NCBI GenBank assembly: GCA_026416755.1
Contig: JAOAEP010000095.1
Coordinates: forward strand, 1-34,786
Source of the DNA: a bacterium
Lineage (GTDB): Bacteria; Ratteibacteria; UBA8468; B48-G9; JAFGKM01
DNA: 34,786 bases
Direction of reading: 5' to 3'
Positions within the stretch are counted from its first letter, which is position 1, and each line of letters starts with the position of its first letter. Below, in pieces: positions 519-29,630 of this stretch. The translations under genes and the position numbers were made by a program. The notes below the pieces were generated by a model that worked only from the letters and a program-made list of their open reading frames with translations, was not told the origin of the DNA and did no database searches.

Positions 519-3410
519 CTAACTCTCATACATTTCTACTTCATATATCTCTGCCTTTGTACCTTGTTTTACTTTTGTTATAATTATTTTCATTTTTACA
601 GTTTTAATTTTTTCATCAAATTTAAATTCAATAACATCTTCTTTATTATCTTTAACTTCTCCTATCTTTTGCCATTCACCTTTTTTCCATATATAAACTT
701 CCATATCTTCTATCGTCGCTGAATATATTTTTAGTCGCTTAAATTCAGGAACAAATGTAAGAAATTTCATCTCAATAAAAGAAGGATTTTCAACTGATGT
801 GGATTTTGTCCAAGAAGACCAACCTAATGTATCTGTCATACCATCACATAGTGTAAATAGGAACATATTTGATATATAAGTATCTGAACTATTAAATTCT
901 ATTTCTCTTCCTTTCCCATAAAGTATATTCCCTTTATTTTTGAAACTATTTTTTATCTCATCTATCTGTTTTTTCAATTCTTCAACTTTTTTAAGACCTT
1001 TTCCTATCTCTGGATATGTTAAAATATGCACCTGATATGGATAAAAATTTAACTTAATTTTTCCATCTTTAACATCAACTAATAAATTCTCTCTAACTCC
1101 ATAAAGTTTCTTAATTTTTTCAAGTTCTTCTGAATATATCTCATCTTCCTGATTACTTTCTGTCATATTAACTGCAATAAGTAAAATTTTTCCGTCTTTC
1201 TCTTTTATCAAAATATCTATATCCTTATTTTTATTTCTAAATTCTAATTTTTCATTTGGATGTGTTAACAAAAATTCTTCAAGTTTTTCTATTGTTTCAT
1301 AAATAAAATCAACACCAAGACGTAAATCAACAGAATTTAAGTGGTCATTATATATAAAAGGAGTAAATCCTTTTGCACCATTTACTATACTTGTCCATAT
1401 CATACAATTAAACTCATCAAAAGTAGGATAATCAGCAAATCTATCAATAAATCCATAAGTAAATGCTTGAGGAGTACACCATGCTGGGATTTTGTTTTTG
1501 GCACTTTGATATACTTCTTCTATTACATTTTTTATTTCTTTTATACTTCTCATTTTCCTTTTTCCACTATCGTCAACACTTGGATTTAAATAAGGATGTG
1601 GATTTAATATGTCAGCGCAGTTAGTATATTTCTTAGGTTCTCTTGTTATAATCATTACAGGATGATATGGGTCTTTTTCTTTTATATACTCATACATATA
1701 TTTTAAATAAACAGGACTTACACCTCTACATTCTGGTTCATCACATAAATAATAAAACCATCTATTTTGGTCTTCTTTCATCTTTTCTATATTATAATCA
1801 AGCATATTAAAAACAAATTGGTGAGGTAATACATCTTGTTTTATTCTCATTGTTTCCTCTTTTGCAATTTTTATCAAGTCATCTTTTTTTATTCCATATT
1901 TATTAAGAAACTCGTTATTCCATGCAAGTTCTCTTAATCTTTCTGCTTCAACTCCCATCCAACATTCCCAAGTATTTACATATTTACTGTTTGGTTTATT
2001 ACCATATCTATTTCTTATTGCCTGACTAACAAGGTATATTGAATTTCCATACCATCCTCTTACAAATATTGGTTTTCCATTTACAACAAGATTTAAATTT
2101 TCATCTATATATACATAACTTCCTTTTTCTGGTTTTTTTATTTTCTTTATTTTTAATTCTTTTTTTTCAATAATTCCATCTTTTCCTGTTAATTCAACTA
2201 TTAAATTATATTCACCTTCTTTCAAATCACTTGCCTTAATTTTAAAATCTACTCTTTTATCTACCTTTAAATCAATTTCTCTTGATAAACTTTCTCCTTT
2301 AAGTTGTATTTTTAATTTTGAATCTTTTATCTTTTCTTCTGGAATATTTATATATACCTTTCCTTCAATATTTTCTATTCTTTCTTCTGGATATATACAA
2401 TTTGAATAGAATGGTTTTTCTATTTCAACTTTTAATTTTTCATAATCCACTTCTACCACTTGAATATTACCTGAAACTACATCTTTTTCATTTAAAATTA
2501 CTATACTTATTTCTTTTTTTCCTTCTTTGCCAAATTTAATATTTTCTACCTTTACTAAATTTCCTCCTTCTTTCAAATTTATTCTTTTGTTAGCAATTTC
2601 TTTTTCTGCTTCAAATACTTTAATTTCTCTTAAACCTATTGCTTTTTTCCCAACATTAAGTTTAATTATCAAATCACCTTCTAATTCTTCATTCTTTATC
2701 TCTACTTCTGTTTTGGTTATTTTTATATCATAAATAGGATTTTTAATAGGCATATTTGTAAACTTTCTAAATTTTTTTACTTCATGAAAACCTCTGTCAA
2801 GAATTGCCCATGTTGATAGTTCATTTACTGGGAATCTATTTCTTGTTATATTCAATAAATATGTATCTGAAAAATCTTTTGAATCTGTATAATAAAAACA
2901 ATATAAAGGAATTTTAACTTCAACAGACCAATAATTTTCTCCTTTAAAAACAGCACTTTCCCATAAACAACTATAATAACCACCACTAGTATTACCTCCT
3001 TCAATCCAATAAGAATCAAATTGTGAATTTGAGGCAGTAACTGCAAATTGATAATAATTCATTCCTTTACCTTCAGGGTCTATAAAAATTTCAACACTAT
3101 CCATTTCCCAGAAACTTGAATCTCTTGGTAAAAACTCGCTTTTTAACTTATTCATATATGGTTCCTCACATCTTATTCCCAAATAGATTGCATTTTCATC
3201 TGTTAAGATTCTAAAACTTGTATCTGCTTTCGGTTTTCCACCACCTTGTGATTGTAAAAGATTAAATCCACTATATAACTTCGCATTTTTCCAATCATCT
3301 TCTTCAAGTTTACCATCTATTTTTATCTCTCCTTTTTTAAAATCTGCTTTATATAATTCTTGACAAGAAAGAATAAAGGGAAATAAAAAAATAAAAGGGA
3401 AGAATTTCAT
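519..3410 (-). CDS. Secreted (possibly lipoprotein) multidomain carbohydrate-binding / putative glycoside hydrolase: CBM9/DOMON-like N-domain, TIM-barrel-like centre, discoidin (F5/8 type C)-like C-terminus
   Basis: 963-aa ORF with GGAGG upstream of the ATG. N-terminus MKFFPFIFLFPFILSC is a signal peptide with a possible lipobox Cys. CBM9-like motifs: DGKLEEDDW, EIFIDPEG..NYYQFAV. Central stretch WFYYLCDEPE resembles a hydrolase acid/base region. The GH family cannot be assigned by eye. Confidence 0.6.
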   Translation of the reverse strand: MKFFPFIFLFPFILSCQELYKADFKKGEIKIDGKLEEDDWKNAKLYSGFNLLQSQGGGKPKADTSFRILTDENAIYLGIRCEEPYMNKLKSEFLPRDSSFWEMDSVEIFIDPEGKGMNYYQFAVTASNSQFDSYWIEGGNTSGGYYSCLWESAVFKGENYWSVEVKIPLYCFYYTDSKDFSDTYLLNITRNRFPVNELSTWAILDRGFHEVKKFRKFTNMPIKNPIYDIKITKTEVEIKNEELEGDLIIKLNVGKKAIGLREIKVFEAEKEIANKRINLKEGGNLVKVENIKFGKEGKKEISIVILNEKDVVSGNIQVVEVDYEKLKVEIEKPFYSNCIYPEERIENIEGKVYINIPEEKIKDSKLKIQLKGESLSREIDLKVDKRVDFKIKASDLKEGEYNLIVELTGKDGIIEKKELKIKKIKKPEKGSYVYIDENLNLVVNGKPIFVRGWYGNSIYLVSQAIRNRYGNKPNSKYVNTWECWMGVEAERLRELAWNNEFLNKYGIKKDDLIKIAKEETMRIKQDVLPHQFVFNMLDYNIEKMKEDQNRWFYYLCDEPECRGVSPVYLKYMYEYIKEKDPYHPVMIITREPKKYTNCADILNPHPYLNPSVDDSGKRKMRSIKEIKNVIEEVYQSAKNKIPAWCTPQAFTYGFIDRFADYPTFDEFNCMIWTSIVNGAKGFTPFIYNDHLNSVDLRLGVDFIYETIEKLEEFLLTHPNEKLEFRNKNKDIDILIKEKDGKILLIAVNMTESNQEDEIYSEELEKIKKLYGVRENLLVDVKDGKIKLNFYPYQVHILTYPEIGKGLKKVEELKKQIDEIKNSFKNKGNILYGKGREIEFNSSDTYISNMFLFTLCDGMTDTLGWSSWTKSTSVENPSFIEMKFLTFVPEFKRLKIYSATIEDMEVYIWKKGEWQKIGEVKDNKEDVIEFKFDEKIKTVKMKIIITKVKQGTKAEIYEVEMYES

Positions 3411-4302: not shown

Positions 4303-5058
4303 TTATCTTAACCTTCCCCACGGCATTCTATAATACCAGTCCTGGTTGGGGTCATATGCTTTATTGTAAGTCCATGCTTCAACATGTCCATCAGCAAATG
4401 CAAATATACAAATCGAAGTTTTAAGATTATCTGTATTTCCATGTCTTAAATTAAACGATTGGCCTGGAGTAGTACCTAAACAAAAAGTATTGTTCCAAGG
4501 AGCAGCACAACCACCATAACCTGTACTTGTAGCTGCAGCATCTCCAAAAATAATCTGTTCAGAAGGTCTTTTTATTTCACTATATTTTTTGTAAGGCATA
4601 ACAGACCCATAATTTCTTCCTCCAACAATACAAACAGGCATTCCATAATGAGCCTCAAGTTGATAGACTAATCTTCCTCTTGCATTTCTATTTGAAGGGC
4701 ATTTCAAAATGCCATTTCTATATTTTGGTGGAATTGTAGCCCAATAGCCACCAGTTAATTCTGGCATGTTAAGATATGTTCTCATAATAAATGGCCACCA
4801 ATATGTTATAGATGGTTCTTGTTCATAAACCATTCCTGAAAATCTATACGCAGCATTATGAACAGCTGGTAAAATCTCATCATAATCTTCAATATACATT
4901 TTCCAAGCAAGAGCAAGTTGTTTTAAGTTATTCATACATAAAGACATTCTTGCTCTTTCTCTTGCTTTACTTAATGCTGGTAATAGCATGGCTGCCAAAA
5001 TAGCAATTATGGCAACCACTACAAGAAGTTCAATTAATGTAAATCCTTTCCTTTTCAT
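4303..5058 (-). CDS. Prepilin-type N-terminal cleavage/methylation domain protein (type II secretion/type IV pilin-like pseudopilin, DUF1559-like with C-terminal H..DG motif)
   Basis: [29 protein letters not shown] is a canonical class III (prepilin) signal. C-terminal RHGN...[11 protein letters not shown] resembles the H-X9-DG motif but with a longer spacer. I prefer ATG 5058 (GGAGGTGAG upstream) over the track start at 5106. Confidence 0.85.
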
Positions 5059-5102
5059 AATCTCACCTCCTTTTTTATTTTTTTCTTCTTTTTTAATTTT
5101 TC

Positions 5103-6121
5103 TCATAATCTCACCTCCTTTACACTTTCTCTTTCTATTATTTCAACATCAAATATTATCTTTTCAATTTTTTTATCAGGATTTTTTATTCTCTCTATCA
5201 ATAATTCAACTGCTTTTTTGCCCATCTCTTCAAGTGGTTGCTCTATTGATGTTAAAGTTGGATTTGAATATAAGCAATTTATTATATTATCAAAACCTAT
5301 TATACTTAATTCATCAGGAACTTTTATTCCAATTTTTGCACTTTCTCCTATTAAACTTAATGCATAAATATCTCCAAATGTAATCACTGCTGTCGGCCTT
5401 TCTTTCATACTGAACCAATTTTTTAATGTCTGTCTTGCATATTCATTTATCTCTTCTGTCCCACCGATTTTCCTCTCAGGCAAATTTATATATTCTTCTT
5501 TTATTTCAAGTCCAAAAATCTTAAGCCCTTCAATATATCCTTCTAACCTTTCTTTTTGATGTATTCCAAGTGGCTTCATCCCAAATAATGATATCTTTCT
5601 ATGACCTTTATTATAAAGATAACCTATTGCTTTTATTATCCCACCTTTATTATCAGGCATAACATAATCACAACTTACTTTCTCAGACCTATAATTTAAA
5701 AAAACAATAGGAATTTTCTCTTTCAATTTTTAAATAACATCATCTGGTATTTTTTCTTCTATTATAAGTCCATCAACTTTTTTTAATATATCAGGCCTAT
5801 ATAATATTTCTTGATAATTCTCTAATGCGTAAAGTAAAAGATTTAAATTTTTATTTTTTATAACCTCAAATACACCTGAATAAAATCTGTGATAATAAGG
5901 GTCTGATATAGAAACACTTGAAGGAAAGATATATCCAATATTTCCTGTCTTAAACCCATCTTCAACTGGTATATAAAATTTTCTATATCCAAATTCTTCT
6001 GCTGTCTCTATAATCTTCCTTCTTGTCTCTGGAGATATCTTTACTTCTTTATTATTTAAAACAAAACTAACTGTCGTCTGTGATACCCCCTCTTTGCAAT
6101 TTCTTTTTGGTTTACTTTCAT
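5103..6121 (-). pseudogene. LacI-family transcriptional regulator, disrupted by an N-terminal frameshift and an in-frame TAA
   Basis: ATG 6121 gives MKVNQKEIAK, then the frame is lost in a G5 run (plus-strand CCCCC, 6086-6090). The -1 frame continues GVSQTTVSFVLNNKEVKISPETRRKIIETAEEFGY (LacI HTH) and stays open to TAA at 5730-5732. The 207-aa track ORF (TTG 5726) continues in the same frame with the sugar-binding domain (IPIVFLNY...SIIGFDNI...LTSIEQP). Confidence 0.8.
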
Positions 6122-22820: not shown

Positions 22821-24653
22821 TCAGTCAAAGGATATTGCTTTTCTTAATATTTTTATTACATCTGTTATATCTATCTGTCCATTTCCATCCATATCTGCAA
22901 ATTCAAGATTTTCAGGGTCAAGTCCTATTGCCATTCTTAAACATAATATTACATCTATTATATCTATAATAAAGTCGCCATTTATATCTCCCTTCTGCCT
23001 TTCTCCTTTTATCAAAATTTCTACATTATCAATTGCCCAAAACCAGTCATAATATGCATCATAGTAGTGCCATCTAAATTTTACATTATTCTTGCCTCTC
23101 ACAATATTTGAAATATCTATAATAACTACTCTTTCATCATCATATCCCTGCCATCTTTTTAAATTTTTCCAATTTTCCTCTTCAATTTTTATATCTAAAT
23201 CAGCAGTTTCATTTGAATAATACCAGAATTTATGTGAAAATTTTAAGTAAATTTTTTTATAATTTGGAAAATTAAAAGATTTAGAAATAAGTTGTTCATC
23301 CATTTTTTTATTCCCTGCCCAATCACTATCTACAATCATAAATGGTTCTGTTAAATAGGGACTTCTTCTATTTTTTGGATTTTGACTCATCCATGTAAAA
23401 CCATCATTAAATCCATCAATAATTTCCCAGTTTGAAGGCAATCCATTTGAAAAATCTTCTGAAAAAATTTTTATATACCCTTCAAATAAATTAGATGAAA
23501 AAAAACTATATAAAAATTCATCCCACATTGTTTCTTTAGGGAAAATTATAGTATTTTCATTGTAACCAGGGTCAATTGAAGAAAAATAAGAGGGAAAATA
23601 AATAGTAAGTCCATATGCTTTATCATTTGGATTTTTATCACATATTACTGCTTGATTGAAGATAATTTGAAACTCTTCAATTAAATTTTTTATATTATCA
23701 TTTTCTGCAATTAAATAATAATTTTCCCAAAAATTATAAATATCAGCAAATTCACTATCAAAAATTAGTGTTTCTTCTCTGGCAAGAAAAATAGGTAGGT
23801 AATCATTCAAATTAATTATTTCATTAAGGAGTTGGTTTAATTTTTGATTCAATTGACCTATTTTATTTAATTTTATTCCTGCTAATGTTTCTTGATTTGT
23901 TGAATTTATAATATAAAAAGTAAGTTCTTCAGCAGTTGCATTTGGATTATTTTTTAATGAGAGTAGAAAACCAGTATAATTCCATCCTTCGGTTGTTTCT
24001 GGACTTTCTGAAGAAACAAAAATATTTGCAAATTCTTTTATTTCAGTCGCAACTTCAATCATACCCATCAAACATGCATCAAAACCAATTAAATCAAAAT
24101 AATTATTTGAAAGTGCTGACCTTACCTCCTTCATTGAGAGATAATCATTACTTGTATCATCATAACATACTTCTTTATAAGGAATTCTTTTTTTTCCTAT
24201 TTCTTCTAAAATTGAGATTGTTCTCCAGCCACTTCCATGATTCCACAAAATTAAAGCATATTTTTCAGCAGGGTAATTTATTTTTGCCCAATTAATAAAA
24301 TCAATTAAAGTTTGTGGATCTCCCATATTTACTTCTCTTCCACCTATTCCATCTCCCCAATTTTTTATTGAATTTGCTCTTGTTGGTATCATTCCATAAG
24401 TTACATAAAATCTATTACATTCTGTCCAGTTATCAAATCTTCTATCATATCCATTTATTCTATCAAATTGAACAACTATATTTACATTCTCATTAGAACC
24501 AATAGATGCCATTTCAAGAAAATCATTAATTGCAAACTCTTCAAGGTCATTATCTCCATCAAGATAAACCATAACAGTCCATTTAGCACCAAAACCATTT
24601 AAAAAAAGACAAATAAAAATAAAAAAACCTAAAGTTAGAAATTTCCTTCCCAT
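22821..24653 (-). CDS. Secreted clostripain-like cysteine peptidase (family C11) with a MAM/choice-of-anchor-J-like domain and a C-terminal dockerin
   Basis: Signal peptide MGRKFLTLGFFIFICLFLNGFGA. I prefer ATG 24653 over the track GTG at 24695. C11 motifs: WTVMVYLDGDNDLE, LILWNHGSGW (His), IGFDACLMGMIEVA (Cys). Also FSEDFSNGLPSNWEIIDG...WFWAIDNVEI. Dockerin: GDINGDFIIDIIDVILCLR...ADMDGNGQIDITDVIKILRKAI. Confidence 0.8.
   Translation of the reverse strand: MGRKFLTLGFFIFICLFLNGFGAKWTVMVYLDGDNDLEEFAINDFLEMASIGSNENVNIVVQFDRINGYDRRFDNWTECNRFYVTYGMIPTRANSIKNWGDGIGGREVNMGDPQTLIDFINWAKINYPAEKYALILWNHGSGWRTISILEEIGKKRIPYKEVCYDDTSNDYLSMKEVRSALSNNYFDLIGFDACLMGMIEVATEIKEFANIFVSSESPETTEGWNYTGFLLSLKNNPNATAEELTFYIINSTNQETLAGIKLNKIGQLNQKLNQLLNEIINLNDYLPIFLAREETLIFDSEFADIYNFWENYYLIAENDNIKNLIEEFQIIFNQAVICDKNPNDKAYGLTIYFPSYFSSIDPGYNENTIIFPKETMWDEFLYSFFSSNLFEGYIKIFSEDFSNGLPSNWEIIDGFNDGFTWMSQNPKNRRSPYLTEPFMIVDSDWAGNKKMDEQLISKSFNFPNYKKIYLKFSHKFWYYSNETADLDIKIEEENWKNLKRWQGYDDERVVIIDISNIVRGKNNVKFRWHYYDAYYDWFWAIDNVEILIKGERQKGDINGDFIIDIIDVILCLRMAIGLDPENLEFADMDGNGQIDITDVIKILRKAISFD
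22824..22991 (-). repeat. Dockerin-coding module, left arm of an imperfect ~168-bp inverted repeat with 29460-29627
   Basis: Hand codon alignment to the giant-gene dockerin gives 38/56 identical residues and 117/168 identical nucleotides. It includes the near-identical run ATAGATATAAT(A/T)GATGTAAT(A/T)TTATGTTTAAG. Confidence 0.7.
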
Positions 24654-24695
24654 TTTATTAGAAAAATTATAACATAAAAAAATTTTCTCTTTCAC

Positions 24696-24725
24696 TTGAC
24701 TATTTTAATAATCTGGTTTTAAAAT
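24696..24725 (+). promoter_or_regulatory. Predicted promoter of the giant gene: TTGACT-18 nt-TAAAAT
   Basis: -35 at 24696-24701 and -10 at 24720-24725, followed by AAGGAGGG and ATG 24744. On the opposite strand TGTTATAAT (24674-24666) is an extended -10 located 12 nt before the C11 ATG. Confidence 0.45.
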
Positions 24726-24743
24726 ATTTTTAAAAGGAGGGAA

Positions 24744-27700
24744 ATGAATGGGATAATCATTTCATTTTTCCTATTCTATATTTATTCTTTTATTTTTGCA
24801 GAACCAATGATTTCTGCTGGTGGTAATTTTACAGTAGCAGTTAGTGAAGATGGATATGTTTATGCATGGGGTAATAATGATTATGGACAACTTGGAGATG
24901 GTACTTTTATTACTTCTTATGTCACGGTGAAGGTAAAAGGAGTAGCAGGAATCGGATATCTCTCTGGAATAAAAATGGTTTCTGCAGGTTATACACACGT
25001 TATTGCATTAAAAGAAGACGGAACTGTTTATGTTTGGGGAACTCTTCAATATACACATCCACATGAAGGATGGACAAGTGGTTTATTGGGTGGGATTCCT
25101 GAAGGTGCTCCTTTGATATCTTATGAACGTTATAATGTAGGTCAAAGTAGTTATCCAATTCAAGTTATGACTGAAGAACTTCATATTGATCCAGAAAGAG
25201 GACCTTATTTTGAGTATAAACCATTAAAAAATGTTAAATTGATCGCTTGCTCTTTTTTTCACTCAGTTGCTTTAAAAGAAGATGGAACAGTTTTGTGTTG
25301 GGGAGTAGATGTTGGAGATCAATGTGGATTGGGGAATACATCTGCTTTAGTATATCCTTATCCCCATGAACTAGTTAACACATACATTTATAATCCATAT
25401 ACACGAAGAAATGAGATATTAACAGATGTAAGATATATAAGTGCAGGAGATTGTTTTACAGTTGCAATAAAAAATGATGATTTTTTATGGTTCTGGGGCG
25501 AAAATAGTTTTAGAGTATACTCAGATTATGCAGATGGATATGCTCGTCCAAGTAATGTTGGTAATATATTAACTGTAGATAGTGGCCCTACTTATTTCAT
25601 TTTACTATCTAAAGACCAGACTGTTAAATTTTGGGGTAACGCTAATTATAATATTGGTATACCGTATTTTGGAAAAACACCTATTCAAATACCAAATCTC
25701 TCAGGAATTATTTCTGTTTCTGCTGGCGGAGGATTGGGTGTTTCTCCCATGGGACATGTTGTTTGTTTAAAAGCAGATGGAAGTATTTGGGGTTTTGGAG
25801 AAAATGGATGTGGACAACTTGGAAATGGGAAAACAAACTGGTATGAGTTGGAGCCGCAGAAAGTTTTAGGATTAAATGGTACTGGTTATTTGAATCTTTT
25901 TAATATTTGTGTTATTCCTAATCCTTTTAATTTTCCAACTACACCTATAGGATGTAAAAATTTAATGACTTTTTTTGTTAAAAATATTTCAGAAAGGCCA
26001 ATAACTATTGGAAAAATATTTATAGAAGGAGAATATAAGAATGAATTTTCAATTGAAAGAGATTTTGTTTCTTTTGCTACATTAAAACCAAAAGAAGCAA
26101 AGAGTTTTAAAATTATTTTTCATCCAATAAAGATTGGAAGTAAAACTATAAGAGTTATAATTCCTTACGGTAATAAAAAAAGAGAGTTATATATAAATGG
26201 AGTATGTGGAACAGTAGAAAATAAAGTTGTAATAAAAGGAACAGTATATGATAAAAAAACAGGTAATCCTATTGAAAATGCAAATATTTTAATAGGTTAT
26301 TATTCTACAATTACAAATGAAAATGGTTTTTATATGATTGATTGGGCTTCTCCTGGAATTTACAATTATGCAGTTTCAAAGGAGGGATATGTTTCTTCTT
26401 ATGGGACAATTGAACTTACTTCAGCAAGTGTAATAAATAAAAATTTTTACTTAATTCCATCAACTACTGGAGAAAAAATTGAAATTACGGAGATAAACAC
26501 AAAATATAACCTTCCTCTATATTTTCTCGGCAAAGTATCTTTTCCTGTTGAATTTTCTGTATCTGTTGATTGGAAAAATTATACACCTTATAAAGCAATT
26601 TTTAAAACAACAAAATCAAATAAAATTTATGAATGGGAAGCAAGTCAATCAAACCCATATTTACCAAAAATAACAATTGATATAGGAGAACTTGAACCTG
26701 GAGATATTTTAAGAGTTAAAGCAATATCAGGAGAAGGTAGTGCGTCTGAGGAAAAGGAATTTATATTTGTTATAATGAAGCCCCTAATAGGAGATTTTAA
26801 GGTTATAGATATAGGTAGTTATTTTTATTATCAAGTTCCATATTTTTTAGAAGGTTTTTCTTTTATTAATGAAGGAATTGAATCCGACTTAATTCCAACA
26901 GAAATTCCATTTTTTGGAGGAAGTAGTATAAACTTACTTTTTACTCCTGTTTTAAAAGCAGAAGTAATAAATAATACTGCCGAATATTCTCTCTTATATA
27001 AGGATTTGATTAAAGGAGGGAATATCGGTCCAGTTGAAATAAATTTTTCACCACATTTTGGGCTATCTGGAGTTTATTCTTCATATTTAATGAAATGGCA
27101 ATGGAATGGTTTTATTGGTCTTCTAACAGATATGAAATCAGAAACACCTCCATTTTATTTACCAATCCCAATACCAATTCCTATTTATGTTAAAGGAGCA
27201 TTTCTTTTATCTCTTGACACAAGATTAAATATACTAAATATAAAACCTGTTGAGTTAAGTGGTAACTTTGTAGTAGAACCTGCTGTTAGAGGGATTTTTG
27301 GAGTTGGTATTTCAGATGTACTTTCTGCAGAAGGTTGGGTTCAAGCAGGTGCTGAAATAAGTATGCAGTATCCACATCAACCAAATTTACAACAAATTTT
27401 AATTGTTGTTAAGTGTGGTTATACAGTTTATTTCATTATAGGTGAATATGAAGCTGGCCTCTGTGAATGGCAATGGAAACTTTATGGGGATAAAAGAAAT
27501 CCAGAATATAAAAAAATTATAAGTGATGAGAAATGGAAATTAATACCGCGTGACTATTTAATCAATGAAAACTATGGAATTTTTAATAGTGGGAAGAAAA
27601 AAGAAATATCAAAGAAAACAATAGAAGATAAAAATTATACATTTTTAAAAGCCATACTACAAGAAAATGTTTTCCCATTACCACAACCAAAACTTATTTC

Positions 27701-29630
27701 AAGAGGAAACAATTTATATCTTGTTTATCTTTACGACAATCCAGAAAGGAGTTCAATAAATAGAACTGTGCTTGTTTTTACATCTTATAATGGAAACCAA
27801 TGGAGTTCCCCTGTGTATATATATGATGATGGAACACTTGATTTTCATCCTGATTTAGTTGTTTTTGATAATGGAGATGCTATTTGTACATGGGAAAATA
27901 TAAAAGAAATTTTATCTGATAACTTCCCAATTCAAAATATTCCAGAAAAAATGGAAATAACTGTGGCAAGATATAATTCTTCTATAAATATGTGGGAAAG
28001 AATTCAGAATTTAACCAATGATAATTATTATGATAGAACTCCTCTTGTGAGAGGTGAATTAAACGACCTTTTCTGCATTTGGATAAAAAATAAAGGAAAT
28101 AGTTTTATTGCTTCTCAAAATTATCCAGATGAAATTTATTATTCAAAGTGGAATGGAGAAAATTGGACTTCTCCAGAGAAAATAAATGAATTTAAAATAC
28201 CGGTTTTGAAAATGGATTTTATTTATAAAAATGGATATGGTTACATTGTTTTAAATTGTGATACTGATTCTAATTTACAAACAATTGAAGATAGAGAGAT
28301 TTATTTAATTAAATATGAAAATGGTATATGGAAAGAACCCATAAAACTAACAGATGACAATGAAGTTGATGATAATCCAAAATTAGTTTTAACCCATGAC
28401 AATAAATTAAAACTTTTCTGGATAAAAAAGAATGGAATTTTTGAATGTGAAGAATTTAATGTAGAAAATAAAAGATTGATAAGAAAGGAAAATTATTCTT
28501 CCCAAATAGCTGATTTTAAAGTTACATCTTCTGAGAATGGGAAAATTGCTATTATATGGACAGAACCATCTGGTTATACATCTGATATCTATTCTATTTT
28601 ATATAACCAAGATTTTGATATTTGGAGTGAAAAGATAAATTTAACTGAAGATGAAGAGGTGGAAAAATATGTTTCACCAACATACTTTAATGAAGATTTG
28701 TCTATTATATATCTCAAACAGAGATATAAAACAAAAGAAATTCCAACGAAATCAAATATTCCTAACTTGAAATCCTTCATGATGCCTTCTCTTATAAAAA
28801 GTGAAATTTCTTTTCTACAATTTATTGAAGGAATTGACATATCAGTTGAAAATATAATAATAACTCCTGAAAATGCTTTGCCCGGAGATATTATCTTTTT
28901 AGAAACAAAAATTGTAAATAAAGGAGAAAAGCCGTTAAGTAATTTTGATATTGTTTTTTACATTAATGATAATGAAGTATTAAGAACAAAATTTGAAGAT
29001 ATTATAAATACTGGTGAAGAAAAAATACTATTAAATGAGTTTATAATTCCTACTATAGGTTTTCCATTCTCATTGAAAGTTGTGGTTGATCCTGAAAATA
29101 AATTGGGTGATAGAGATATTTCAAACAATATAAAATTAGTAAAATATGGTCTTCCCGACTTAAAAATAGAAAATTTATCTGTTTTTGAAAAAAGAGAAAA
29201 ATTACAGATAATTATAAGAATTAGCAATAAAGGGACTTCAGATAGTGGGCAATTTACTTTGAAAATAAAAAATGAATTAGGATTAATTACTCAAAAAGAC
29301 ATTGAAAATTTAAAGAAAGAAGAAAGTCAAGATATTGTTTTGGAAATAGAAAAAGGATATAAAGAGTTTTTTGTTGTTCTTGATGAAGAAGATTATGTGG
29401 AAGAAAAAAATGAAGAAAATAATTCATTGTATTTCTTTTATGAAATTTTTGAAAAATCGGGTGATTTAAATGGTGATAATGAAATAGATATAATTGATGT
29501 AATTTTATGTTTAAGGCAGGCAATTGGACTTGATGAAACAAACTTTATTTTTGCTGATATAAATAAAGATGGAGAAATAGATATTTCTGATGTTATTCTT
29601 ATTTTAAGGAAAGCGATAGGGCTTATATAA
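24744..29630 (+). CDS. Giant secreted multidomain protein (1628 aa): RCC1 beta-propeller, ASH/HYDIN-like Ig domain, carboxypeptidase-regulatory-like domain, ~400-aa unassigned core, BNR/sialidase-like repeat region, 2x CARDB, C-terminal dockerin
   Basis: N-terminal hydrophobic signal. About 6 RCC1 blades (GGNFTVAVSEDGYVYAWGNNDYGQLGDG; AGYTHVIALKEDGTVYVWG; FHSVALKEDGTVLCWG; ...GSIWGFGENGCGQLGNG) at nt 24816-25868. Ig-like domain at 25905-26204. VIKGTVYDKKTGNPIENANI...NGFYMI at 26223-26453. Repeated NGxxWSSP/WTSP/WKEP motifs at 27678-28730. CARDB x2 at 28836-29423 (LPGDIIFLETKIVNKGEKP..; ISNKGTSDSG..). Dockerin at 29457-29627. Confidence 0.85.
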   Translation: MNGIIISFFLFYIYSFIFAEPMISAGGNFTVAVSEDGYVYAWGNNDYGQLGDGTFITSYVTVKVKGVAGIGYLSGIKMVSAGYTHVIALKEDGTVYVWGTLQYTHPHEGWTSGLLGGIPEGAPLISYERYNVGQSSYPIQVMTEELHIDPERGPYFEYKPLKNVKLIACSFFHSVALKEDGTVLCWGVDVGDQCGLGNTSALVYPYPHELVNTYIYNPYTRRNEILTDVRYISAGDCFTVAIKNDDFLWFWGENSFRVYSDYADGYARPSNVGNILTVDSGPTYFILLSKDQTVKFWGNANYNIGIPYFGKTPIQIPNLSGIISVSAGGGLGVSPMGHVVCLKADGSIWGFGENGCGQLGNGKTNWYELEPQKVLGLNGTGYLNLFNICVIPNPFNFPTTPIGCKNLMTFFVKNISERPITIGKIFIEGEYKNEFSIERDFVSFATLKPKEAKSFKIIFHPIKIGSKTIRVIIPYGNKKRELYINGVCGTVENKVVIKGTVYDKKTGNPIENANILIGYYSTITNENGFYMIDWASPGIYNYAVSKEGYVSSYGTIELTSASVINKNFYLIPSTTGEKIEITEINTKYNLPLYFLGKVSFPVEFSVSVDWKNYTPYKAIFKTTKSNKIYEWEASQSNPYLPKITIDIGELEPGDILRVKAISGEGSASEEKEFIFVIMKPLIGDFKVIDIGSYFYYQVPYFLEGFSFINEGIESDLIPTEIPFFGGSSINLLFTPVLKAEVINNTAEYSLLYKDLIKGGNIGPVEINFSPHFGLSGVYSSYLMKWQWNGFIGLLTDMKSETPPFYLPIPIPIPIYVKGAFLLSLDTRLNILNIKPVELSGNFVVEPAVRGIFGVGISDVLSAEGWVQAGAEISMQYPHQPNLQQILIVVKCGYTVYFIIGEYEAGLCEWQWKLYGDKRNPEYKKIISDEKWKLIPRDYLINENYGIFNSGKKKEISKKTIEDKNYTFLKAILQENVFPLPQPKLISRGNNLYLVYLYDNPERSSINRTVLVFTSYNGNQWSSPVYIYDDGTLDFHPDLVVFDNGDAICTWENIKEILSDNFPIQNIPEKMEITVARYNSSINMWERIQNLTNDNYYDRTPLVRGELNDLFCIWIKNKGNSFIASQNYPDEIYYSKWNGENWTSPEKINEFKIPVLKMDFIYKNGYGYIVLNCDTDSNLQTIEDREIYLIKYENGIWKEPIKLTDDNEVDDNPKLVLTHDNKLKLFWIKKNGIFECEEFNVENKRLIRKENYSSQIADFKVTSSENGKIAIIWTEPSGYTSDIYSILYNQDFDIWSEKINLTEDEEVEKYVSPTYFNEDLSIIYLKQRYKTKEIPTKSNIPNLKSFMMPSLIKSEISFLQFIEGIDISVENIIITPENALPGDIIFLETKIVNKGEKPLSNFDIVFYINDNEVLRTKFEDIINTGEEKILLNEFIIPTIGFPFSLKVVVDPENKLGDRDISNNIKLVKYGLPDLKIENLSVFEKREKLQIIIRISNKGTSDSGQFTLKIKNELGLITQKDIENLKKEESQDIVLEIEKGYKEFFVVLDEEDYVEEKNEENNSLYFFYEIFEKSGDLNGDNEIDIIDVILCLRQAIGLDETNFIFADINKDGEIDISDVILILRKAIGLI
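29460..29627 (+). repeat. Dockerin-coding module, right arm of the inverted repeat with 22824-22991
   Basis: GDLNGDNEIDIIDVILCLRQAIGLD...ADINKDGEIDISDVILILRKAIGL. See the left-arm entry for the hand alignment. Confidence 0.7.

Follow-up and report, generated by a model that had tools for sequence, protein, structure and literature searches.

Cohesin–dockerin interactions are best understood for the degradation of cellulose in Firmicutes, and their role elsewhere has long been a loose end. In clostridial and ruminococcal cellulosomes, as in the proteins described here, secreted cargo carries a C-terminal, two-segment, calcium-binding dockerin, and the cohesin modules are beta-sandwiches. The likeness extends to multi-cohesin proteins, to adaptors combining cohesins with a dockerin, and to anchor-bearing cohesin proteins, all of which are found in relatives of the present locus. 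The two dockerin segments are internally symmetric, as in the dual-binding-mode dockerins of cellulosomes. Cellulosomes, however, belong to Firmicutes, whereas the present genes come from a diderm PVC-type candidate lineage. The cargo of cellulosomes is cellulases; here it comprises C11 and M14 proteases, a peptidoglycan hydrolase, propeller/Ig giants and a beta-helix protein. Unlike in cellulosomes, no SLH or sortase anchoring is found; hydrophobic segments at the C-terminus, or a C-terminal domain that resembles a barrel, are the candidates for this role.

Dockerins and cohesins have been described before on proteins that have nothing to do with the breakdown of cellulose. Such non-cellulosomal modules (Peer et al. 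2009, PMC3035643), of which the Archaeoglobus fulgidus cohesin 2XDH is an example, are mostly isolated and have no known partner, in contrast to the multi-component hierarchy and conserved cohesin-protease operon reported below. A system inferred for the uncultured diderm ‘Ca. Stygibacter’ of the Cloacimonadota (Williams et al. 2021, PMC8542988) likewise has signal-peptide enzymes with C-terminal dockerins, namely peptidases (S8 and the gingipain-like cysteine peptidase C25) and glycoside hydrolases, together with a cohesin-rich scaffoldin; degradation of both polypeptides and polysaccharides was inferred. That system belongs to a different phylum and its cysteine protease is C25 rather than C11. 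It also differs in that the C11 protease, in relatives of the present locus, is operonic with a dedicated cohesin protein of ∼540 aa, here called CohX, and in that no T9SS C-terminal domain was seen on the scaffold candidates. The ‘dockerin-type’ giants of Omnitrophota, a neighboring PVC phylum (West-Roberts et al. 2023 preprint; Seymour et al. 2023), are also large, secreted and adhesin-like, contain Dockerin_1, and have been proposed to function in adhesion. They exceed 10,000–30,000 aa and contain many internal dockerin and TSP3 repeats as well as transmembrane anchors, whereas the giant described here has 1,628 aa, a single dockerin at its end and a widespread core unlike theirs.

The locus lies in a 34.8-kb stretch of DNA, the whole of which is referred to as the window, and consists of two divergent genes (Table 1). 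ORF A encodes a cysteine protease and ORF B the giant. We consider it probable that the two genes encode separate cargo subunits of a non-cellulosomal, cellulosome-like cohesin–dockerin system that is typical of a PVC-group candidate lineage.

Table 1. Predicted features of the protease–giant locus, by position in the window.
Feature	Position	Strand	Basis
C11 (clostripain-family) cysteine protease gene, ORF A, 610 aa	22821..24653	-	Peptidase_C11 1.1e-49; start as in the L002 gene call
C-terminal type I dockerin of protease, two Ca-loop/helix segments	22824..22991	-	Dockerin_1 28.1 bits, motif scan, PDB
Cleaved_Adhesin / MAM-like beta-sandwich domain of protease	23202..23468	-	Pfam 21.6 bits, cutoff 21.4
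C11 catalytic domain of protease	23661..24569	-	alignment to clostripain 9CIP and C11 zymogen 6MZO
Catalytic Cys194 of protease (in FDAC)	24072-24074	-	aligned to clostripain
S1 Asp192 of protease (in FDAC)	24078-24080	-	aligned to clostripain
Catalytic His139 of protease (in LILWNHGSGW)	24237-24239	-	aligned to clostripain
Signal-peptide-like N-terminus of protease (MGRKFLTLGFFIFICLFLNGFG)	24588..24653	-	hydrophobicity scan
Divergent intergenic region, 90 bp, 82% AT; back-to-back promoter-like hexamers; AAGGAGGG	24654..24743	no strand	
Giant secreted multi-domain protein gene, ORF B, 1628 aa	24744..29630	+	
RCC1-type beta-propeller ‘head’ of giant	24810..25913	+	Pfam
Ig-like (HYDIN/ASH-like, weak), then CarboxypepD_reg	25920..26450	+	Pfam
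Conserved core of giant	26460..28823	+	no Pfam/NCBIfam match; AF2 and Foldseek
Two CARDB domains of giant	28845..29429	+	Pfam 6e-19, two stretches
C-terminal type I dockerin of giant	29460..29627	+	Dockerin_1 28.6 bits

The spacer between the two genes is exactly as long as originally predicted and richer in AT than the window as a whole (73%). It contains a strong Shine-Dalgarno sequence, AAGGAGGG, ahead of the giant gene. The promoter-like elements predicted on both strands are present, but such hexamers are frequent in this AT-rich DNA (64 found against 45 expected) and those in the spacer do not rise above background. ORF A is open as far as a GTG at 24695 (full ORF 22821..24695, minus strand); the ATG at 24653 is the likelier start and is the one called in the identical contig L002. 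A replication origin at the switch of strand and GC skew near 24.7 kb was rejected (18 DnaA boxes against 14 expected, with none in the spacer), as was a regulatory RNA in the spacer, the sole match of an Rfam search being a tRNA-Arg.

ORF A matches Peptidase_C11 (PF03415) with 170.4 bits against a cutoff of 25.8, and the PDB entry of clostripain (9CIP) at 4.4e-19, in agreement with the clostripain-like His/Cys protease first proposed. Against TIGR02806, the NCBIfam equivalog model for clostripain, it scores 89.9 bits, below the cutoff of 550, and it is best classified as a member of the C11 family, not as an orthologue of clostripain. Orthologues in related contigs are 41–67% identical and keep both the dyad and the dockerin; His139, Asp192 and Cys194 are invariant across 11 of them, and the catalytic dyad of ORF A is intact by alignment. 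With the known C11 peptidases (clostripain, PmC11, thetapain, distapain) ORF A shares the clan CD fold signature, the His…Cys order and a basic inter-subunit loop at the autoprocessing position (GKKRIPYK, between His and Cys). The Asp two residues ahead of the Cys is shared with the Arg/Lys-specific members. Unlike these peptidases, ORF A has an additional MAM-like/Cleaved_Adhesin domain and a dockerin; the literature searched yielded no connection between C11 and dockerins. The MAM-like domain had been anticipated and is barely above its Pfam cutoff (Table 1), and it is also found in the orthologues of L010 and L096. Protease and giant each have a single N-terminal hydrophobic signal-like segment, as predicted, and the scan found no further transmembrane segments in either; for the protease the segment is defined by hydrophobicity.

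Most of the domains read from the sequence of ORF B are confirmed by Pfam: an RCC1 propeller (4.7e-45; WD40_RLD 154.9 bits with a cutoff of 150, RCC1_2 107 bits, RCC1 68.7 bits), CarboxypepD_reg (1.6e-10) and two stretches of CARDB (68.6 bits, over threshold). The predicted ASH-like Ig domain has an Ig-like match, albeit a weak one. The head is variable, with one extra blade in strain L002 and a PQQ-like propeller in place of RCC1 in L074. The core, about 750–790 aa long, matches no Pfam or NCBIfam model and yet is found in 2,291 representative clusters. A six-bladed, sialidase-like propeller probably makes up its second half. The AF2 model of the giant is of low confidence (mean pLDDT 42.5; 50–83 in the propeller part; about 20 for residues 573–982, modeled from a two-sequence alignment), and the best Foldseek matches of the propeller are GH33 sialidases at E∼1e-9 but with a TMt of only about 0.4. 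The BNR-like repeats of the original prediction have no match in Pfam, even at E≤1, and may correspond to the propeller of this low-confidence model. A cohesin hidden within the giant was ruled out at the sequence level (best E 6.4 with a lineage-specific HMM). With its architecture (variable head, CarboxypepD_reg, core of ∼750 aa, CARDB), ORF B is a lineage-specific, dockerin-tailed form of a very large and widespread family in which the head can be swapped and for which no family model exists.

The bodies of the two proteins are unrelated, and in BLASTP the alignment is confined to their final 58 residues, of which 38 are identical (E 5e-18; 38/56 in the earlier hand alignment). Type I dockerins are defined by two tandem segments of ∼22 residues, each with an EF-hand-like calcium loop (D/N at positions 1, 3, 5 and 9; D/E at 12) followed by a helix, and both tails show this organization. 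In all four segments (DLNGDNEIDIID.../DINKDGEIDISD... in the giant; DINGDFIIDIID.../DMDGNGQIDITD... in the protease) loop positions 1, 3, 5, 9 and 12 are D/N/D/D/D, and the two segments of the giant are identical to each other at 16/22 positions. Both tails exceed the Dockerin_1 (PF00404) cutoff of 22.9 bits, and their best PDB matches, 5LXV_B and 1OHZ_B, are dockerins solved in complex with cohesins. By these measures the tails, as predicted, are bona fide dockerins. DNA-pattern scans of related contigs found the same dockerin type in 90 of the 95 sources scanned, carried by at least 33 unrelated protein families and located at the extreme C-terminus in 109/117 carrier ORFs. The dockerins of the C11 protease, the giant and the other cargo form one sequence type (63/73 in a single cluster). 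A private specificity for the protease was rejected, as C11 dockerins are no closer to each other than to those of other cargo; specificity between given cohesin and dockerin partners is beyond what sequence can tell.

Cohesins verified by Pfam occur in related contigs (L008, 37.8 bits; L009, 38.0; L010, 35.3; L034, 39.3; L070, 36.1), in multi-cohesin scaffoldin-like proteins, in cohesin-plus-dockerin adaptors and in proteins with C-terminal, membrane-anchor-like ends. Examples are a protein with three cohesins and a dockerin (134 bits) and an adaptor with two cohesins and a dockerin. The modeled structure of CohX (pLDDT 75.9) has cohesins as its best Foldseek matches (6KGC_A and, from Archaeoglobus fulgidus, 2XDH; TMt 0.75–0.79). 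Among 12 informative loci, 10 have CohX immediately upstream of the C11 protease gene, and the two genes often overlap by 4 nt (CohX is the direct upstream neighbor in L034, L039, L048, L070, L095, L096, L097, L098 and L099), and a cohesin gene lies at most two genes from C11 in 12 of 13 informative distinct loci. The conserved neighbor of the protease is CohX, not the giant. In the window itself CohX is absent, and no cohesin was found with the lineage-specific HMM (best E 0.52), as had been noted before. This is not unusual, since a cohesin is present in only 7 of the 21 dockerin loci that are at least 10 kb long. A search for the CohX family returned 16 clusters, none with an accession from the assemblies of this organism, and cohesins are therefore presumed in this particular genome. 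Docking to a cohesin-bearing scaffold encoded elsewhere, as originally proposed, is reasonable because numerous verified cohesins accompany this dockerin type in related contigs. In the lineage the system comprises 33 cargo families, multi-cohesin proteins, adaptors and anchor-like proteins, of which two cargo genes are visible here.

The original prediction regarded the two genes as a dedicated, co-regulated module in which the protease matures or sheds the giant on a common anchor, both being expressed from one control region. The divergent arrangement around a short AT-rich spacer with promoter-like hexamers on both strands is compatible with this, as is the existence of processing proteases among C11 enzymes (e.g., PmC11, and clostripain by autoprocessing; PMC4850288). 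C11 orthologues are, moreover, usually followed by large dockerin-tailed proteins, and a gene for an RCC1-repeat protein is near C11 three times, directly downstream in L034 and L054 and two genes downstream in L099. We nevertheless find such a module improbable. Neither of the giant's two non-identical relatives (L001 and L074) has a C11 gene nearby, the gene upstream of the relative in L001 being RsmE-like, and at about 13 distinct C11 loci this giant is missing. The pair is not a conserved module, an outcome by which the original prediction was to be refuted; it reflects local gene order only. The large neighbors of C11 are non-orthologous between loci (an NHL giant, an Ig giant, a glucosaminidase, a beta-helix protein), and nothing links the protease specifically to the giant. 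Arg/Lys-rich linkers, suggested as C11 sites, were not found: no 30-residue window of the giant has ≥30% Lys+Arg, and hence no C11 cleavage site is evident in it. The promoter-like matches, at background level, also weigh against common control. If instead the C-terminal module bound no cohesin, it could be a generic calcium-binding tag for stabilization or sorting, such as a signal for export or surface retention, or an element of glycan- or calcium-mediated adhesion. Its occurrence on so many unrelated families, the lack of a cohesin in the window or traced to this organism's assemblies, and the many dockerin-bearing genomes without cohesins known from Peer et al. 2009 (PMC3035643, as cited in PMC8542988 and PMC10066038) would all fit. 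A generic tag, to which the original prediction would have turned if a complete genome had no cohesin and the module sat on many unrelated secreted proteins, is unlikely because cohesins abound in related contigs. Adaptors of the same lineage fuse the identical dockerin type to cohesins, and this type is also found next to multi-cohesin proteins; such an arrangement is the hallmark of a working cohesin–dockerin hierarchy. The C11 orthologue shares an operon with the gene of a cohesin protein, and the helices of both dockerin segments are complete and keep conserved residues on their surface.

The cargo interpretation could also take another functional form, in which an epibiotic or predatory cell uses the complex for attack or attachment and not to degrade polymers for nutrition, the giant serves as an adhesin for host or prey, and the C11 protease, with other cargo, breaches the envelope of the target. 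The same dockerin is found on a peptidoglycan glucosaminidase (L048) and an M14 carboxypeptidase, some members of the giant's core family have M23 or MepM heads, and Omnitrophota have been proposed to be ultra-small cells that either depend on a host or are predators, and to have adhesin-like giants with dockerins (PMC10066038; bioRxiv 10.1101/2023.11.21.568195). We consider this quite unlikely. It is drawn purely from domain content, and Ratteibacteria do not have the very large proteins that are typical of Omnitrophota (bioRxiv 10.1101/2023.11.21.568195). The ultra-small or epibiotic candidate-phylum host first envisaged also fits poorly with the window, which encodes an OMP beta-barrel, PVC-type pseudopilins (N_methyl+DUF1559) and a free-living-style repertoire for glycan use (GH2, GH38, GH42, CBM9, LacI regulators), and in which no markers of host interaction or predation are present. 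From this gene content the organism appears to be a PVC-type diderm glycan degrader rather than a CPR bacterium. The lineage assignment is based on the labels of related contigs, which read Ratteibacteria or Omnitrophota.

Under the favored interpretation of two separate cargo subunits, protease and giant would each be exported by their own signal peptide, and their dockerins would insert into cohesin modules on scaffold proteins whose genes lie elsewhere in the genome. A cysteine protease of the Arg/Lys type and a large binding protein, with its propeller head, conserved core and CARDB domains, would thereby come together in one cell-surface or extracellular complex. The C11 protease would be a recurrent core member, co-transcribed with CohX in most relatives. 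The role of the complex would most likely be the capture and degradation of extracellular polymers or of the envelopes of other cells. It is conceivable, though a long shot, that the protease and the translationally coupled CohX form the conserved organizing or maturation unit of an undescribed proteolytic ‘cellulosome’ in Ratteibacteria-type bacteria, which would activate or trim docked cargo, including the head-swappable giants, and whose assembly would attach to and digest the envelopes of other cells; in this genome the protease would have become uncoupled from CohX and come under a control region common with one client. The peptidoglycan hydrolase and the M14/M23 cargo suggest the envelope-digesting part of that proposal.

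Protease and giant are adjacent here only; the observation itself is confirmed, and its original interpretation is upheld only in part. The core of ∼750 residues, found in over 2,000 protein clusters from several phyla, deserves a family model. The hierarchy found in an uncultured PVC-group lineage is complete, with cargo and adaptors as well as multi-cohesin proteins and candidates for the anchor. Its most constant cargo, a clostripain-type protease, shares an operon with the gene of its own cohesin protein. Such genes offer clonable pairs, for example the C11 dockerin and the CohX cohesin, with which cohesin–dockerin function outside the cellulosome could be tested.

The two genes diverge from a spacer of exactly 90 bp when the C11 protease (A) is read from the ATG at 24653 (610 aa, N-terminus MGRKFLTLGFF...) instead of as the longest ORF. 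This start is biologically likelier and is the one that the gene call uses in L002 (GCA_025059975.1), an independent contig of almost the same sequence. At 82% AT, against 73% for the window, the spacer confirms the predicted arrangement of two genes around a 90-bp AT-rich region. The promoter-like elements predicted on both strands are present as hexamers, but those in the spacer do not exceed the background of such AT-rich DNA (64 found, 45 expected). Because no Shine-Dalgarno sequence lies upstream of the A ATG (24654-24675, minus strand) and a TATAAT in the same interval is only about 14 nt from it, the A mRNA may have a very short leader or none. The gene for the giant protein (B), unlike A, has a strong AAGGAGGG.

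In the whole-window profile, the sign of the GC skew and the orientation of genes both flip at this spacer (about 24700), with all large genes but one on the minus strand to its left and all on the plus strand to its right. A replication origin was rejected for this position, as the window shows no enrichment of DnaA boxes (18 found, 14 expected) and the spacer has none at all. The switch is most simply a coding-strand effect.

Coordinates of features in the window and in related loci
Locus	Position	Strand	Feature
Window	519-3410	-	CBM9-containing protein, 963 aa
Window	4303-5106	-	N_methyl+DUF1559 pseudopilin-like protein
Window	22821..24695	-	A, longest ORF, 624 codons (ORF scan)
Window	24654-24743		A/B spacer, with the ATG 24653 start
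Window	24744..29630	+	B, 1628 codons (ORF scan)
Window	26460-28823		B core, aa 573-1360, 788 residues
L002	1534-1610		168-bp tandem duplication relative to window 24811-24901; one extra 56-aa RCC1 blade
L074	5153-10261		B orthologue
L034	13237-16392		Three cohesins and a dockerin (Pfam Cohesin, 134 bits)
L068	9555-11609		Two cohesins and a dockerin (Pfam Cohesin)
L008	1293-4289		Large N-terminal-cohesin protein
L027	5632-8823		Large N-terminal-cohesin protein
L028	1493-5488		Large N-terminal-cohesin protein
L068	13071-16928		Large N-terminal-cohesin protein
L010	5900-6733		SurA-like parvulin PPIase
L036	3379-4239		SurA-like parvulin PPIase

Pfam searches agree nearly point by point with the domains originally read in the two products, each of which has a single N-terminal hydrophobic segment and no other transmembrane segment. 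A matches Peptidase_C11 (1.1e-49), Cleaved_Adhesin, a MAM-like sandwich (21.6 bits, barely over the 21.4 cutoff), and Dockerin_1 (28.1 bits, cutoff 22.9). Its alignment to clostripain 9CIP (E 4e-19) retains His139 in LILWNHGSGW and Asp192 and Cys194 in FDAC, which bears out the predicted His/Cys motifs. A basic loop, GKKRIPYK, falls between the catalytic His and Cys, the position at which C11 enzymes autoprocess. B matches an RCC1 propeller (4.7e-45), weakly an Ig-like domain, CarboxypepD_reg (1.6e-10), two CARDB domains (6e-19) and Dockerin_1 (28.6 bits); profile support was absent for the ‘BNR-like repeats’ ascribed to it.

The proposed two-segment C-terminal dockerin is indeed shared: BLASTP of A against B aligns the last 58 residues exclusively (38/58 identical, E 5e-18), and a six-frame motif scan finds no other dockerin in the window. 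All four calcium loops of the two tails are canonical, and the segments of the B dockerin are 16/22 identical to each other, a symmetry that goes with dual-binding-mode dockerins. Among solved structures, the best matches to the dockerin profile are dockerins crystallised in complex with cohesins.

A dockerin-pattern scan of species-representative genomes and metagenome contigs yielded 92 loci, which were then searched in all stop-to-stop frames with local HMMs. Dockerins occur in 117 ORFs, at the extreme C-terminus in 109, and those of A, B and other cargo are of one sequence type (63/73 in one cluster). Pfam gave independent confirmation of cohesins in L008 (37.8 bits), L009 (38.0), L010 (35.3), L034 (39.3) and L070 (36.1), and two proteins combine several cohesins with a dockerin. 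The four large N-terminal-cohesin proteins have one of two kinds of C-terminus: a strongly hydrophobic segment with a basic tail, or a domain of about 270 aa with a terminal Phe or Leu, as in outer-membrane barrels. They are candidate membrane anchors or anchoring scaffoldins of a diderm system. With anchor candidates joining the cargo, adaptors and scaffoldin-like proteins, this lineage shows the architecture of a cohesin-dockerin hierarchy. As predicted, the window itself has no cohesin, even by a 33-domain lineage-specific HMM (best E 0.52), which is not unusual given that just 7/21 dockerin loci of at least 10 kb contain one.

Orthologues of A (41-67% identity), all with the C11, MAM-like and dockerin architecture, are found in L010, L027, L034, L036, L039/L068, L048, L054, L070/L073 and L095-L099. 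Their conserved neighbour is CohX, which is secreted, measures about 520-570 aa and is 28-53% identical across loci; besides its signal peptide and N-terminal cohesin it has a Pro/Ser/Thr-rich linker and three more beta-domains. CohX lies directly upstream of C11 on the same strand in L034, L039/L068, L048, L070/L073 and L095-L099, and of the five loci for which genes are called, four show a 4-nt overlap of the two; in L010 it is two genes downstream, and in L027 a short version is directly downstream. The only exceptions are the window and L036, which holds the closest relative of A (67% identity). The family comprises only 16 clusters in a 5.8-billion-protein database, the named ones being ‘cohesin domain-containing protein’ from Ratteibacteria or Omnitrophica, and its cohesins form their own clade, apart from scaffoldin cohesins. 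An AF2 model of CohX (15-sequence alignment, mean pLDDT 75.9) best matches cohesins in the PDB, including 6KGC_A (TMt 0.75) and the non-cellulosomal A. fulgidus 2XDH (TMt 0.79). The upstream context of the operon is also conserved (RND efflux genes, rhomboid, GT9, a 107-aa ORF). Downstream there is usually a large dockerin cargo of varied kind: an NHL giant (1980 aa), an Ig giant (1411 aa), a beta-helix protein, a peptidoglycan glucosaminidase or small RCC1+dockerin proteins. Given the adjoining CohX and this varied cargo, the C11 protease belongs to cohesin-dockerin gene islands, of which the window is a cohesin-less variant. In L010 and L036 the gene next after the C11-dockerin gene encodes a SurA-like parvulin PPIase, which may help to fold exported cargo; no such gene is present in the window.

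The window (27% GC) also encodes GH2, GH38 and GH42 enzymes, LacI regulators, and the pseudopilin-like and CBM9 proteins, whose genes lie among the GH genes. This neighbourhood is one of PVC-style glycan utilisation, and the N_methyl+DUF1559 pseudopilin is a hallmark of the PVC superphylum. All close relatives found for the dockerin, protease and CohX carry the label Candidatus Ratteibacteria, Candidatus Omnitrophica/Omnitrophota, ‘TA06’ or ‘bacterium’. Since many ‘Omnitrophica’-labelled genomes are Ratteibacteria under GTDB (preprint), these labels place the host, with moderate confidence, in a PVC-group Ratteibacteria/Omnitrophota-type lineage.

The domains, catalytic dyad, shared tag, lineage-wide cohesin hierarchy and synteny are observed; binding, location, the presence of cohesins in this genome and the purpose of the complex are inferred. 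Probably, A and B are both exported and dock, through their dockerins, to cohesins on scaffold proteins whose genes lie elsewhere in the genome; a cysteine protease of Arg/Lys type and a large binding protein would then share one surface or extracellular complex. A generic tag without cohesin binding is unlikely. The original prediction had looked for such a tag in a wide spread combined with a lack of cohesins; the spread is there (94 carriers with >150 aa upstream of the dockerin represent 33 unrelated families) and would by itself fit, but the same loci hold 34 cohesin-bearing ORFs in 21 loci. The dedicated protease-substrate pair first envisaged, with A acting on B, is quite unlikely, and the two genes are not a conserved module. 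Only two non-identical full-length relatives of B exist: that of P0002/L001 (48% identical) has an RsmE-like divergent upstream gene, that of L074 has no C11 gene in its flanks, and none of the listed A orthologues adjoins a relative of B. Most doubtful is a functional variant of the docking model, in which the complex serves an epibiont or predator for attack or attachment. The ultra-small host once suggested is not borne out, the organism not being CPR-type: it encodes glycoside hydrolases, an OMP beta-barrel, the DUF1559 pseudopilin and housekeeping genes (DnaJ, CutA, lipoate ligase).

The cohesin-dockerin principle is familiar from known systems. Cohesin and dockerin modules outside cellulosomes occur in all three domains of life (Peer et al. 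2009, PMC3035643), a cellulosome-like system that includes dockerin-tagged peptidases of families S8 and C25 has been inferred in Cloacimonadota (PMC8542988), and the literature also records giant proteins with dockerins in Omnitrophota. Our literature search turned up no paper that connects C11 peptidases to dockerins or describes cohesin-dockerin systems in Ratteibacteria; new, therefore, are the lineage, the operon that joins C11 to a dedicated cohesin in relatives, and the giant chassis protein with its dockerin tail.

Neither Pfam nor NCBIfam has a model for the core of B, a module of about 750-790 aa between CarboxypepD_reg and CARDB. Almost the whole core is nevertheless matched by 2,291 representative clusters (428 of them at E<=1e-30), in proteins of 1,000-5,000 aa whose named members come from Omnitrophota, Desulfuromonas and Phycisphaerae. 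The family order is variable head, CarboxypepD_reg, core, CARDB. Among 28 members examined, CARDB is present in 25 and CarboxypepD_reg in 24, N-terminal heads include RCC1, PQQ, M23, FG-GAP and SBBP, and a dockerin is an uncommon partner. With heads so variable and dockerins so uncommon, B is a head-swappable chassis protein whose dockerin tail was acquired in this lineage. Two comparisons fit this view. The L074 orthologue retains Ig, CarboxypepD_reg, core, 2x CARDB and dockerin and has a PQQ/BamB-like propeller in place of RCC1, a head swap, and L002, otherwise 99.6-99.9% identical to the window, carries an extra RCC1 blade, a strain-level polymorphism in blade number. An AF2 model of the core, built from a 2-sequence alignment, gave no usable fold for aa 573-982 and a moderate-confidence propeller at about aa 983-1322 resembling GH33 sialidase and lectin propellers, only a hint of such a fold. 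The core family is large, uncharacterised and spread over several phyla, and merits a family model and a structure.
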